From assembly GCA_963705295.1 (NCBI GenBank), contig OY970065.1:288001-352000 (forward strand): 64,000 nt of DNA, written 5' to 3'. Position numbers and translations under genes: made by a program. The notes under the pieces are model-generated. The model did not search any database. It was not told the DNA's origin and was given only the letters and a program-made list of their open reading frames with translations. This DNA is from Parachlamydiales bacterium. Lineage in GTDB: Bacteria > Chlamydiota > Chlamydiia > Chlamydiales > Rhabdochlamydiaceae. The first letter of the stretch is position 1. The number at the start of each line of letters is the position of its first letter. Below are positions 31,178 to 34,909 of this stretch, in pieces.

Positions 31178-31271
31178 AAAAACTCCTAAATAAAATTTAG
31201 GATAAATGATGGGGGGGGGGGGGGGGTAGTCAAGTAATAATTGAAAAAATTCTGGGTGAGAGGCTTCGAAC
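31178..31271 (-). repeat. Direct repeat copy A: tRNA-Pro 3' fragment (31251-31271) + promoter with C16 tract + RBS
   Basis: Near-identical to 34767-34855 except tract length (G16 vs G10 on +) and a few single-base differences. Confidence 0.95.
31199..31233 (-). promoter_or_regulatory. Promoter TTGACT-N23(C16)-TATCCT, predicted OFF spacing
   Basis: -35 at 31228-31233, -10 at 31199-31204, G16 at 31211-31226 on +. Confidence 0.7.
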
Positions 31272-31280
31272 TGATGAAAA

Positions 31281-32201
31281 TTATTCAATAGAGAGAATAT
31301 AATCTCTTTCACTGATGAGTTTGTTATAAAAGAATAGGTTGTTTGAGTAAGCCGTTTGATAGGCCCTACGTAAATTCTCATCTTGAATTTCAGCAAAAGT
31401 AGGCTGACCCTCGATGTCTACTTCATAACTATGTGGCTTATTAAAACCGGTGCTACGAATTGCATCCCCATGCCAATGGTGGGTATGGAGATGAACTTTG
31501 ATTTCATGCCATTCATTTTCTCCTGTAAAATCGGCCCCGAGATCTGACCAATGTAGAGATTCTGGAATATGAGGCAGTTCCAATCGTTGACACAATGCTC
31601 GAATGGTTTTTTCAGGAAATTGATAAAGATCTTCTGTTAAAATGATAATCGGTTGGTTTTGCGCATGTTTCTTAACAAATTCAAAAATAGAATATTCAGC
31701 TTTATATCCAAGCAAATAATCTAATCGATCAGGAATGCTTTTAACCTTATTATAAAAAGACAGGGCTACATGATGAGGATTTCGAATTAAAAATAAAAAA
31801 TAGCTCTTTGGATTTTGAACAAATCCATGGTCGTCGATTAAAAAATCTTCGACAGCAAAACTCATTTCCTTCACAAAAACATTTTTATGCTGCGTTAAAA
31901 GTTGTTGCTTCACTTCATCAAAAGAGAAAAAGGCCCCCTTTCGAAACCACGAGGCAGTCACCTCTGGATAATGGATACGATCATAGGCATACATCGAAGG
32001 CTCGTGAAATATCTCAAAATCACCCCTTTCTTGCATCATCCGTGTGAAGGCGACAGACATCGAACGAGGAGGAGAAATAAGATAAATAATTTTATTCTCC
32101 GAGCAATAAAGCCCAGAAAAGAGCAACAACAAACTCAAAAGCACATGTTTCCCCAAAAAAACTCTGGGTTCATTGAAAAAATAAGAACACTGCTCCCACA
32201 T
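31281..32201 (-). CDS. Sulfotransferase-like P-loop protein (start uncertain; possible signal peptide)
   Basis: SPPRSMSVAF, FHEP, VFVKEM, FLIRNP, WHGDAIRSTGF. Confidence 0.7.
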   Translation of the reverse strand: MWEQCSYFFNEPRVFLGKHVLLSLLLLFSGLYCSENKIIYLISPPRSMSVAFTRMMQERGDFEIFHEPSMYAYDRIHYPEVTASWFRKGAFFSFDEVKQQLLTQHKNVFVKEMSFAVEDFLIDDHGFVQNPKSYFLFLIRNPHHVALSFYNKVKSIPDRLDYLLGYKAEYSIFEFVKKHAQNQPIIILTEDLYQFPEKTIRALCQRLELPHIPESLHWSDLGADFTGENEWHEIKVHLHTHHWHGDAIRSTGFNKPHSYEVDIEGQPTFAEIQDENLRRAYQTAYSNNLFFYNKLISERDYILSIE

Positions 32202-32380
32202 CCACTCAGAATGCCAAGGAGGTTCTTATTTTTGTACAGGTAATCTATTAACTCGAGCCCAAAAAAATGTGACAATCTAACATTTAGCCTGAAAAGAGTG
32301 GCAGGTTATTTTTGCCTAAGTTGTTTAAAATCTTTTTTCTGATATGATTTCCTACATTTTACGAATTTTTGAGGATGCAT

Positions 32381-33265
32381 ATGCAAAAAGATGATGCGAA
32401 TAGCCTGATTCCCAGCAAGCTATTATTTGAAGATTTAAAAAAGCTCAATCAGCATGGGATAGAGTATTGGAGCGCAAGAGAACTGCAATCCCTTCTAGGG
32501 TATTCTAAGTGGCAACGTTTTGAAAATGCGGTGGAAAAAGCCATCGAGTCGTGCAAACAGTCGGGGAACGATCCAAAGCATCACTTTACCGGCGCCGGTA
32601 ACCCAATAACGAATGGAAAAGGGAGAACTCAAGTTGTTGAGGATTACCATCTTTCGCGTTTTGCCTGTTATCTTATTGCTCAAAATGGAGACTCTAGAAA
32701 ACCAGAAATTGCCCGTGCTCAGAAGTACTTCGCGATTCAAACTCGACGCCAAGAGCTTACCGATGCAGCCATTGCCGATCTCGAACGTTTAGAGTTGCGC
32801 AAACAGGCCTCTCAAGAGTTCAAAGCTCTCTCGGGAGCGGCTCGCGATGCCGGTGTCCAAAATAAGATGTTCGGCATCTTTCATGATGCAGGTTACAAGG
32901 GCCTTTATGGAGGACTTGGTTCTGATGCAATCAAGGCTCGCAAAGGGATTGAGCCAAAAGAACAGCTGATGGATCGAATGGATAGGACAGAATTGGCTGC
33001 CAATCAATTTCGAATGACTCAAACACGAGAAAAACTTAAACGTGAAGGCGTCAAGAATCAAAGGAATGCTATTGAGGCTCATGAAACAGTAGGGAAAGAA
33101 GTTCGAGCAGCTATTTCTAAAATCGGAGGGACTCAACCTGAAAATATCCCTCCTGCCGAACACATCAAAAAAGTAGAAAAACGGCTTAAAACTTCCAAAC
33201 CCATTCTAATGCTCGATCCTAAGGATGCAGCTGGCATCGTGGATAATGAAGCAAAAGATCTTTAA
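32381..33265 (+). CDS. dinD: DNA damage-inducible protein D (Bro-N-like N-terminus)
   Basis: EYWSARELQSLLGYSKWQRF, LSRFACYLIAQNGD.RK..IA.AQ.YFA.QTRRQE, GYKGLYGG, ELAANQFR.TQT. Confidence 0.85.
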   Translation: MQKDDANSLIPSKLLFEDLKKLNQHGIEYWSARELQSLLGYSKWQRFENAVEKAIESCKQSGNDPKHHFTGAGNPITNGKGRTQVVEDYHLSRFACYLIAQNGDSRKPEIARAQKYFAIQTRRQELTDAAIADLERLELRKQASQEFKALSGAARDAGVQNKMFGIFHDAGYKGLYGGLGSDAIKARKGIEPKEQLMDRMDRTELAANQFRMTQTREKLKREGVKNQRNAIEAHETVGKEVRAAISKIGGTQPENIPPAEHIKKVEKRLKTSKPILMLDPKDAAGIVDNEAKDL

Positions 33266-33419
33266 CTGACGATGAACTGACCGAGGCTCTTTTAGCATGC
33301 ATTCTTCTCGGGTAAACCTTCTTTCTGATATAATTCGTTCTTTTTAAGGGCATTTCAAAAAGTATTCAATTAAAAATATGTTGCTAAAGACAACTCATCA
33401 TCCGTGAACTTACATACTG

Positions 33420-33711
33420 AAAATCAGCGGCTTCCAATTTCAGTTGGTTACAGTTTGTAACCGACTCACCGCCCTCTTTATTGAGCTTATTTTAAGACTT
33501 TCCAATAGTTTCTGGCTGATTGAAAATCAGTTTGTTGAGTCAATACATGGATGATATCTACGATCGAAAAGTACCACGTCTCTGTTGCCTCATCATATAA
33601 GCGGCGTATCTTGTTGTTTTCGAGTGGGATCAATTCAATTTCATAGGATGGATTCCAAATGGTATTTATCAGCTTTCGTAAAGAATTCATTTCAAAGAAA
33701 AGTCCAATCAT
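33420..33711 (-). pseudogene. Frameshifted, truncated Bro-N domain (phage antirepressor-like) remnant
   Basis: IRRLYDEATETWYFSIVDII..RNYWKVLK* continues in another frame as KLNKEGGESVTNCNQLKLEAAD, then degenerates. Confidence 0.7.
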
Positions 33712-33785
33712 TACGACGATAAAATCTAATCAGCCCCCCTAGCTTGATGGCCAACTCAGATACACATAGGGGGCAAATCAAAATA

Positions 33786-34766
33786 CTAGTCACTTTGGAT
33801 CATCGGAAGACGATATCCTTTCATTCGAAAAGGAATTTCGGGCTCCGCTTCTTTTGATTGACATGCCGGATAGATGGTGAATGTGATCTCTAGGATATTT
33901 TCAACATCTGGTGGAAAGGATGCATGAATTGTCTGCGCGAATCTTCCATTACTATTGACGGCAAAACCAAATATATTTCCACCAAAGGGGGTAAGCGGTT
34001 TTTGAACATTTCCTAGAAAATCAAGCTGAGCTTTCTTTTCTGCCCATGGGTTAAAGAATGCGGGAAGGACAAAATTTTGAACCTTGGTTCCCTTAATTTT
34101 ATAAAAATTAAAACCTCCAAAACCTACAGGGTCACAAATTTGCCTTGAGAATCCTTTTGTTTTATTAGCTCCAATATCTAAAACTTGATAAGACCCTGGA
34201 AAAAAGAAAAATCCAAAAACTCTATCCACTAGAATTTCCATGATTTCATGACTCATGGTGATACTCAATGCATCCCCTCTTGTTAAATTTGGAAAAGTAG
34301 GAGCTCCCAGTGATATCATTGCTGCGATTCCGTAAAATTGTTTCACACTTCCAAATGGAAGAATGTCAACTGCTGTTCCTACTGGTACTTTTGGGGCATC
34401 CGGGATCCAAAATGAGGGTTGAGGTCCTGCTGGATTATCATCGGGCTGAACGATATAGTTAGCCGCGATGGTACCCATGAATAATTCTGGATGCTGCACT
34501 TCATCGACTAAATATTCAACAATGACATTATTAGATTTAAGCTTAGGAAATTGCCCACGAGGAAGCAGGGTAATATTCGTAGCCACTCCCCAGTGGGGAG
34601 CTAAATCACGAAGAGTTAGTTCTTGAACAGCTTGAACTGCTCTCTCAACATTTCTACGCGAAATTTTCGTCATTAAATCGACAACGATGGTTTCGGTTAT
34701 CACAGGTTCGGCATATCCCAAGAGAGGAAAAAGAAATGCAATGAGTAGACAAAAAAACTTTTTCAC
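33786..34766 (-). CDS. Secreted protein with HExxE motif, paralog B
   Basis: GTG start with SD AGGAGG; signal peptide; SHEIMEILVD and QICDPV; collinear with paralog A. Confidence 0.75.
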   Translation of the reverse strand: MKKFFCLLIAFLFPLLGYAEPVITETIVVDLMTKISRRNVERAVQAVQELTLRDLAPHWGVATNITLLPRGQFPKLKSNNVIVEYLVDEVQHPELFMGTIAANYIVQPDDNPAGPQPSFWIPDAPKVPVGTAVDILPFGSVKQFYGIAAMISLGAPTFPNLTRGDALSITMSHEIMEILVDRVFGFFFFPGSYQVLDIGANKTKGFSRQICDPVGFGGFNFYKIKGTKVQNFVLPAFFNPWAEKKAQLDFLGNVQKPLTPFGGNIFGFAVNSNGRFAQTIHASFPPDVENILEITFTIYPACQSKEAEPEIPFRMKGYRLPMIQSD

Positions 34767-34788
34767 AAAATCCTCCTAAATAAAATTT

Positions 34789-34817
34789 AGGATAAATGAT
34801 GGGGGGGGGGTAGTCAA
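34789..34817 (-). promoter_or_regulatory. Promoter TTGACT-N17(C10)-TATCCT, predicted ON spacing (repeat copy B, 34767-34855)
   Basis: -35 at 34812-34817, -10 at 34789-34794, G10 at 34801-34810 on +. Confidence 0.75.
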
Positions 34818-34834
34818 GTAATAATTGAAAAACT

Positions 34835-34909
34835 TCTGGGTGAGAGGATTCGAACCTCCGACCCCCAGCACCCCATGCTGGTGCGCTAGCCAAGCTGCGC
34901 TACACCCAG
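34835..34909 (-). tRNA. tRNA-Pro(GGG)
   Basis: Reverse complement CTGGGTGTAGCGCAGCTTGGCTAGCGCA-CCAGC-ATGGGGT-GCTGG-GGGTCGGAGGTTCGAATCCTCTCACCCAGA. Confidence 0.95.

Follow-up and report, generated by a model that had tools for sequence, protein, structure and literature searches.

A 64,000-nucleotide stretch of a Parachlamydiales bacterium genome (family Rhabdochlamydiaceae; contig OY970065.1, positions 288,001 to 352,000, hereafter the window) carries two paralogous genes, A and B, for proteins with signal-peptide-like starts, and each gene is preceded by a poly-C run between a predicted -35 box and a predicted -10 box. Are these runs switches, and what would they switch? An earlier note on this DNA proposed a contingency locus, caught with B on and A off, that exchanges two versions of a secreted protein at random. 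It is fairly probable that the locus holds two independent slipped-strand promoter switches of the porA/tp0126 type, with B likely on and A likely off in the consensus sequence. Slipped-strand changes in the poly-C run would alter the spacer between the -35 and -10 boxes and turn each gene on or off independently. The best reading is that A and B are two independent contingency genes of a larger repertoire and not a reciprocal switch; all four on/off states would be open because nothing links one tract to the other.

On the minus strand, each copy reads TTGACT-A-C(n)-ATCATT-TATCCT with AGGAG further on, and this arrangement, like the 17-base-pair (bp) and 23-bp spacers that go with C10 and C16, is as the earlier note had described it on the assembly sequence. 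An 8-bp inverted repeat stands ahead of AGGAG in both copies. The source genome is one contig of 2.13 Mb with 44% G+C, and both tract lengths are read from this single-contig assembly. A genome-wide pattern search for the TTGACTA-Cn cassette, which the earlier note had proposed, yielded exactly two copies, and C16 is the longest homopolymer in the genome. The elements of the two copies are as follows (window positions).

30176..31177, minus strand: gene A, 333 amino acids, signal-peptide-like N-terminus, unnamed HExxE family
31183..31271, minus strand: repeat copy A, 89 bp, with a tRNA-Pro tail remnant, -35 box, C16, -10 box, hairpin and Shine-Dalgarno sequence
31184..31202, minus strand: 8-bp perfect inverted repeat of copy A, spanning the -10 box to the Shine-Dalgarno sequence
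31199..31204, minus strand: predicted -10 box TATCCT of copy A
31211..31226, minus strand: C16 tract of copy A (G16 on the plus strand), preceding gene A; spacer 23 bp
31228..31233, minus strand: predicted -35 box TTGACT of copy A
33786..34766, minus strand: gene B, 326 amino acids, GTG start, signal-peptide-like N-terminus
34773..34855, minus strand: repeat copy B, 83 bp, with 71/73 bases as in copy A outside the tract
34774..34792, minus strand: 8-bp inverted repeat of copy B, covering the -10 box and Shine-Dalgarno sequence
34789..34794, minus strand: predicted -10 box TATCCT of copy B
34801..34810, minus strand: C10 tract of copy B (G10 on the plus strand), preceding gene B; spacer 17 bp
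34812..34817, minus strand: predicted -35 box TTGACT of copy B

Promoter-like sites between window positions 29500 and 35600 number 11, against 12.5 expected, and a lone consensus match is not significant. Since the match alone carries little weight, placement and context were examined. A de novo expectation-maximisation promoter model settled on an AT-rich -10 box that carried no information; its scores, with those of a scan over tract lengths, were dropped, and a count anchored on 456 intergenic TTG[AC][CA][AT] sites near gene starts (tract promoters left out) was used instead. TAnnnT follows 42 of these 456 sites at 17 bp and 20 at 18 bp, and between 3 and 16 at the other spacings from 11 to 24 bp. 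Because the genome prefers a 17-bp spacer, C10 puts the two boxes in register, and C16 sets them six bases too far apart. Two tract-free promoters of the source genome have TATCCT at 17 bp, and the mapped sigma-66 consensus of Chlamydia pneumoniae is given as TTGA..TANNNT, with leaders mostly of 10-50 nt (PMC3333780). The tracts thus occupy a credible predicted sigma-66 spacer. That B is on and A off, as the earlier note held, is the simplest reading given the 17-bp preference; the off state of A is the more indirect half of it, since a promoter scan also lists a TTGACT-16-CATCAT pairing in copy A.

The earlier note overlooked the other tract promoters of the genome, the tRNA-Pro context and a hairpin over the ribosome-binding site. 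The source genome has five G/C runs of at least 8 nt and nine runs of any base of at least 10 nt. Six of these nine stop 30-34 bp short of a gene whose start is signal-peptide-like, including all four runs of at least 11 nt and all three G/C runs of at least 10 nt. Such positions make up about 1% of the genome and 5% of its intergenic DNA; therefore, the placement is not due to chance. It also sets this genome apart from 15 genus relatives, in which 0 of 69 G/C runs of at least 9 nt are placed so (Fisher p 0.001, A and B counted once). The placed runs are C16 and C10 at this locus (the N-termini of both A and B pass the simple signal-peptide filter), G10 before a 498-residue BNR-repeat protein, and A11, A11 and A14 before members of a BNR-repeat family of 620-640 residues, which makes three tract origins; the remaining three are A/T 10-mers in coding sequence. 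The G10 promoter (G000:43419, G000 being the source genome) is the third independent origin. Over nine tract promoters the spacers are 17, 17, 17, 17, 16 and 23, 14, 14, 11 bp, so that four of the nine miss the register by 3-6 bp. In the BNR family, three cassettes whose flanks are nearly identical have A8, A11 and A14, giving spacers of 11, 14 and 17 bp. Both mutS and mutL are present and intact; therefore, fast change, if any, would be confined to the tracts.

Several details of these loci were recorded alongside. The 498-residue BNR-repeat protein (L216, G000:C1:41890-43430) has a signal-peptide-like start and stands behind TTGC-G10 with a predicted spacer of 14 bp. A tandem array of five BNR-repeat signal-peptide proteins, 80-90% identical (L215, G000:C1:632072-644890), and a sixth copy (L217, 450904-452860) each lie behind a poly-A spacer (A8, A9, A9, A11, A11 and A14; spacers 11-17 bp), and two other BNR paralogs in the genome have tract-free promoters. 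In each of the four off-register spacers the departure from 17 is a multiple of three, a pattern noted post hoc; two of these tracts are not within an open frame of their gene. At G000:C1:1977050-1977059 an A10 stands where two long open reading frames (382 and 970 codons) overlap in different frames, and reflects an assembly error or else a contingency gene of the frameshift type. In the window, a C9 run (20271-20279) follows TTGAAG on the minus strand and was classed as coding, being inside a 318-residue open reading frame (20042-20998, minus strand).

The two cassettes also provide a relative clock. The shared block, a direct repeat, runs from the T-loop of tRNA-Pro(GGG) through the Shine-Dalgarno sequence, and its copies are identical at 71 of 73 bases outside the tract, that is, they show two substitutions against a 6-nt difference in tract length. 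Genes A and B agree at only 23 of 70 fourfold-degenerate sites, at which synonymous change is saturated. By this comparison the cassette was copied recently and is far younger than the split between A and B. The C-tract has altered by 6 nt since the copying, faster than its flanks, as judged from one assembly.

Downstream of the tract, the perfect inverted repeat links the -10 box with the Shine-Dalgarno sequence. Of the 731 genes that have an AGGA/GGAG site, A and B alone have such a repeat of 8 bp. Transcription is predicted to start 6-8 nt past TATCCT, giving a leader of 14-17 nt. Opening the Shine-Dalgarno sequence is predicted to cost 2.1-2.6 kcal/mol for this short leader and 6.7-8.0 kcal/mol for transcripts that start further up; the short transcript is cheap to open because its start omits the 5' arm of the hairpin. 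Mean unpaired probability reveals little hairpin effect, whereas the joint opening energy shows it. Translation of read-through RNA from the tRNA or the sulfotransferase gene upstream of A would be poor, since its ribosome-binding site would be folded into the hairpin, and such masking may leave control with the tract. Alternatively, the inverted repeat could serve as a DNA operator.

Two other kinds of switch were considered and rejected. A reciprocal A/B switch does not fit direct repeats in which each gene has its own full promoter, and no coupling device was found among the open reading frames between the repeats. Translational phase variation through the tract fits poorly with an in-frame stop three codons before the start of B (open frame of 329 amino acids) and with the position of the Shine-Dalgarno sequence after the tract. 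The frame of A is open upstream through C16, and the public gene call for A (P0001, 378 amino acids) starts 45 codons upstream and reads through the tract; it is probably a mis-start.

What the two genes encode bears on the meaning of a switch. A and B are 48% identical over 330 residues and match no Pfam or NCBIfam family, and a sequence search of solved structures gave no match. They belong to a large, unnamed family with 709 representatives at E 0.001, found in soil-type bacteria and, according to Atlas features and structure, in phages. Six residues are near-invariant over 139 aligned rows: H108 (130 rows), H180 (136), E181 (133), E184 (129), E215 (132) and D218 (133). All six occur together in 121 of the 139 rows and in gene A, whereas gene B has Asn at the H108 column and Gln at the E215 column of A. 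The same Asn and Gln changes occur in the family member P0013, which is 29% identical to B. A appears to carry a predicted metal site and B an altered or inactive one, a state probably reached twice independently, and A and B are probably not equivalent versions. The exchange between two versions proposed in the earlier note is not supported: nothing couples the tracts, and B differs at two near-invariant residues.

A model built from a deep alignment (predicted local distance difference test score, pLDDT, 96.5) contains a helix with the His-Glu motif. Metzincins stand at the top of the Foldseek matches, the best being a weak match to MMP-13 (E 0.01), and VIA fold matches include YbeY (Z 7.2, root-mean-square deviation (rmsd) 3.8, 112 residues aligned) and 3lmc (Z 6.9, rmsd 3.8, 116 aligned); no zincin match reached E 0.001 or Z 8. 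The top hit by structure is a phage protein, itself uncharacterised (E 1.3e-4). The zinc-binding motif HExxH does not occur in A, B and the family, which have HExxE, and the fold matches to the zincin metallopeptidases (MMP-13, archaemetzincin, YbeY) are weak. Both products may be zincin-like proteins that bind metal and are exported, the predicted site being intact in A and altered in B; as a proposal, A would be an exported metal-dependent hydrolase and B a binding-only twin. Phi_1/EXORDIUM (PF04674), an Atlas neighbour at 0.81 and a lead only, was rejected: none of the 139 family members match it in Pfam at E 0.1, and it appears in none of the listings from the fold searches. Elsewhere in the source genome, a 470-codon frame (L004, G000:C1:1416984-1417232) weakly matches the C-terminal half of the A/B family (E 2e-4 to 2e-5) and is possibly a fused fourth member.

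Tract promoters of this design recur outside the source genome. The closest genomic homologue of A, at 52% identity (L005), comes from a second Chlamydiales genome, G443, and has A10 in its spacer; its orthologue L006 has an interrupted run there. In G443, which lies outside the genome set of the family search described below, 9 of 23 A-runs of at least 10 nt and one of eight G/C runs of at least 9 nt fill the spacer before signal-peptide-like genes (seven of these ten starts passed the filter and three were judged by eye), and the promoter of the A/B homologue is among the ten. All ten have TAnnnT 15-17 bp further on, against an expectation of about 9% per site, a rough statistic since the -35 box was picked by best match. 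One of them, at L425:1490-1560, is a poly-C promoter close to consensus (TTGACA-C11-GACAT-TATAGT), and the protein encoded behind it is unnamed, of exported type and unrelated to A and B; another shares flanks with the A14 cassette of the source genome and precedes a 26%-identical BNR homologue. Overall, these cases show that the runs sit in promoter geometry and recur across genomes.

Poly-A versions stand before BNR and beta-helix proteins in G443 (L404, L401, L402, L405-L407). In G322, a G9 lies directly before TACTGT (L434:1480-1560) with no evident -35 box, the first 80 residues of the gene behind it resemble G443 L406, and L406 has an A11 at the corresponding place. G292 followed by C324 in G443 (L417/L421, G443:C1:598.5-599.1 kb) is almost certainly an assembly artefact.

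Several results weigh against switching, or against parts of it. The design is not a genus trait: among 15 genus relatives, none of 69 G/C runs of at least 9 nt stands at that position before a signal-peptide-like gene. Two of 11 A-runs of at least 11 nt in these relatives do lie in a similar spacer, before genes that by eye have no evident signal peptide; A-rich spacers are therefore partly ordinary. In the wider family, poly-C runs occur in 77 of 128 genomes, and among the 30 loci examined none lies 30-34 bp before a signal-peptide-like gene, one G12 lying 59 bp before such a gene. The cassette pattern was absent from 400 other genomes drawn from the phylum and is thus confined to one assembly, and proteins A and B each form a single-member cluster. 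The signal-peptide filter is home-made (K/R plus a hydrophobic window), flags 207 of 1762 genes, and is neither SignalP nor validated. The zincin-like Z scores, at most 7.4, are weak and tied with those of unrelated alpha/beta folds, and the hairpin effect, ranking 19th and 63rd of the 731 genes, is strong, although other genes exceed it. No part of an assembly is less reliable than its long homopolymers, and the coding A10 lies at a frameshift-like overlap. A return of A to the on state may be rare, six steps from the 17-bp state with mutS and mutL intact. Finally, five of the nine tract promoters of the source genome are in register or within 1 bp, as are nine of ten in G443. The G443 spacers mostly fit the register or fall one base below it, which a fixed promoter or a one-base under-call would also produce; near-register tracts weigh against switching because a fixed family promoter predicts them too. 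The T-rich spacers of the C. pneumoniae pmp promoters belong here as well, the passages on them in PMC3333780 making no claim of switching.

Such a fixed promoter, in which selection holds a low-complexity spacer at about 17 bp and A has drifted to C16 after the tRNA-Pro insertion, heading for permanent silence, is an unlikely alternative. It would account for the near-register tracts, for the pmp spacers just mentioned, for a broken gene remnant in the islet, and for A being six steps off in a genome with mismatch repair genes. It accords poorly with the intact reading frame of A and its full set of six conserved residues, with the four off-register tract promoters, with a C-run that is not an A/T-rich spacer element, and with the rise of poly-C or poly-G spacers at three unrelated places (A/B, G000:43419 and G443 L425). 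The tract might also tune the level of expression over several registers, A being active through CATCAT (16 bp at C16, 17 bp at C17) or through read-through from the sulfotransferase gene, but this is rather improbable. Although the scan lists the CATCAT pairing, the tract-free third A/B paralog (G000:471 kb, 29%) has an ordinary TTGACA-17-CATAGT promoter with a CA-starting -10 box, and TAAATT offers a third register at C5 (22 bp for C10), CAnnnT at 17 bp is not enriched (8 seen against 7.6 expected), nor is the 16-bp spacing (9 of 456 sites). The stretch between the sulfotransferase gene and A showed no terminator, but read-through RNA is predicted to mask the ribosome-binding site.

It is very improbable that the palindrome is an operator for a dimeric regulator, with phase variation nested in a regulated promoter and the tract acting through the geometry of regulator or polymerase as in fim or opc. 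The exact palindrome occurs in these two copies only, hence no regulon, and its arms complement the Shine-Dalgarno sequence, so that an RNA hairpin explains them without a protein; what speaks for an operator is that in both copies the perfect 8-bp palindrome spans the -10 box and the predicted start, and that none of the 731 genes has a longer one of this class. Equally improbable is an assembly artefact, in which both tracts are truly of the same length and C16 is a consensus error. Homopolymers are error-prone, there is one single-contig assembly, the G443 spacers centre on 16 and not 17, as a one-base under-call would give, and one coding A10 is frameshift-like. However, frameshift-like signatures do not rise steeply with run length (73 of 4184 at 6 nt, 8 of 448 at 8 nt, 2 of 48 at 9 nt), and a consensus error leaves the very placement of tracts in spacers unexplained. 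Consensus errors of long reads are usually one- or two-base under-calls, and a six-base over-call would be far larger.

Two independent slipped-strand switches thus being the preferred reading, the question remains how the cassette came to stand before both genes. The predicted promoter of B starts 17 bp past the 3' end of tRNA-Pro(GGG), and a 21-nt copy of the tRNA tail lies ahead of the promoter of A, 3.56 kb downstream of the tRNA and without evident function. The features between and beside the two repeats are listed below.

31251..31271, minus strand: 21-nt copy of the tRNA-Pro(GGG) 3' end with one mismatch, an att-like scar
31281..32201, minus strand: sulfotransferase-domain gene (Pfam Sulfotransfer_5, E 8e-7), cargo, ending 10 bp short of repeat copy A
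32369..33265, plus strand: dinD (NCBIfam NF008573, E 2e-105), cargo
33360..33650, minus strand: broken gene remnant with stops and frameshifts
34835..34909, minus strand: tRNA-Pro(GGG), intact, insertion hot spot in the genus

Between the repeats lie gene B, the broken remnant (possibly Bro-N-like), dinD and the sulfotransferase-domain gene, at 39% G+C against 44% for the genome, and no integrase was found among the open reading frames between or beside the repeats. The locus is a tRNA-anchored islet without an integrase. The 3.6-kb block from B through dinD to the sulfotransferase gene may have come in by insertion or duplication at tRNA-Pro, and recombination between the direct repeats could delete the 3.6 kb between them. 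The sulfotransferase-domain gene (31281-32150, minus strand) has a likely GTG start after GGGGA and, by eye, a hydrophobic N-terminus, and is possibly export-tagged. Genes near the locus match Chlam_OMP and UPF0137, as would be expected of a chlamydia.

The tRNA-Pro region was taken from 18 genus relatives, and in 17 of them a T-run and varied cargo come after the tRNA; the A/B cassette follows in none of the 17, two of the 17 have duplicates of their own tRNA-Pro tail, and three have dinD sequence nearby. Independent tail duplications of tRNA-Pro(GGG) with dinD nearby occur at L201 (G005) and L213 (G013); therefore, tRNA-Pro is an insertion hot spot in the genus. In the source genome, own 20-nt tails are also copied 86-97 nt downstream of tRNA-Leu (142495), tRNA-Lys (521240) and tRNA-Ser (1567099), and 8.7 kb downstream of tRNA-Tyr (886209). 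The A/B protein family was found in none of 128 other genomes of the same bacterial family and in three of the 400 genomes of the phylum draw, one of them marginal. Viral contigs gave seven matches to the cassette pattern, none with a tract, and the best homologues in a metagenome collection are 38% identical over short segments, none being in the close clade.

A broader scheme can be sketched, which is speculative and rather unlikely to hold in full. Some environmental chlamydiae would practise combinatorial phase variation of their exported proteins with portable cassettes, each a slippery spacer with a hairpin against read-through, copied before incoming genes (here with a tRNA tail) and shared across chlamydial families. 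This locus would toggle an intact HExxE enzyme, A, and its twin with a doubly altered site, B, to give enzyme, decoy, both or neither, and selection would probably come from protist or invertebrate hosts or from phages, and not from antibodies. If switching is true, promoter-spacer phase variation extends from animal pathogens to environmental chlamydiae, and it does so as a repertoire (about nine promoters here and ten in G443) and not as a single gene. Contingency tracts mark the proteins under the strongest host or phage selection, and they point to the HExxE and BNR-repeat families as host-interface candidates in bacteria so far uncultured. The two copies are also a natural matched pair with the same flanks and C10 or C16, on which a reporter could test the spacer rule directly. 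Phase variation by this mechanism is textbook knowledge from pathogens, and a limited literature collection yielded no report of phase variation or contingency loci in environmental chlamydiae (Rhabdochlamydia, Simkania).

Within the phylum, the novelty suggested in the earlier note is not supported. In Chlamydia trachomatis CT533/lpxC, a length-variable poly(A) tract lies in the predicted -35/-10 spacer, 36 bp before the start codon, and the reads carry 12 A in 87% and 11 A in 9%, shifting on passage (Borges et al. 2015, PMC4514472). The two cases share the phylum and a tract between a predicted -35 and a predicted -10 box, whereas the lpxC tract is poly(A), precedes a single essential gene and shifts by one base, and the A/B tracts are poly-C, precede paralogous accessory genes, differ by six bases and belong to about nine tract promoters. 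Homopolymer phase variation was also hypothesised for the C. pneumoniae Cpn1054 and pmp families (PMC4514472). These are likewise chlamydial paralog families with homopolymer tracts, with low-complexity promoter spacers on surface genes in the case of pmp, although their proteins are unrelated to A and B. Some of the Cpn1054 poly-C tracts are said to lie upstream of the gene.

Outside the phylum, the earlier note's analogy with porA holds well and that with the fim genes of Bordetella more loosely. The fim2, fim3 and fimX genes are paralogous genes for exported proteins, each with poly-C in its own promoter and switching independently (PMC1891110). In the model cited there, however, the tract sets the distance from the activator-binding region to the -10 box, whereas a near-consensus -35 box (5/6 match) flanks the tract of A and B. 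The closest parallels are tp0126 of Treponema pallidum and porA of Neisseria meningitidis, both described in PMC7864442 as having poly-G between the -35 and -10 boxes with an optimum of 17 bp. They share with A and B the homopolymer in the spacer, the 17-bp optimum and, downstream, a gene whose start is at least signal-peptide-like, and tp0126 also shares a public gene call that reads through the tract. In contrast, the tract of A and B is C on the sense strand, its cassette was duplicated with a tRNA tail, and the products look like soluble enzymes and not like the outer-membrane barrels encoded by tp0126 and porA. Starts, length variation and reporter effects were measured in those systems, whereas the promoters of A and B are predicted from sequence. 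Three features of the porA-type class are found at this locus, namely a homopolymer in the predicted spacer, a fixed spacer preference and a tract that appears to change faster than its flanks.

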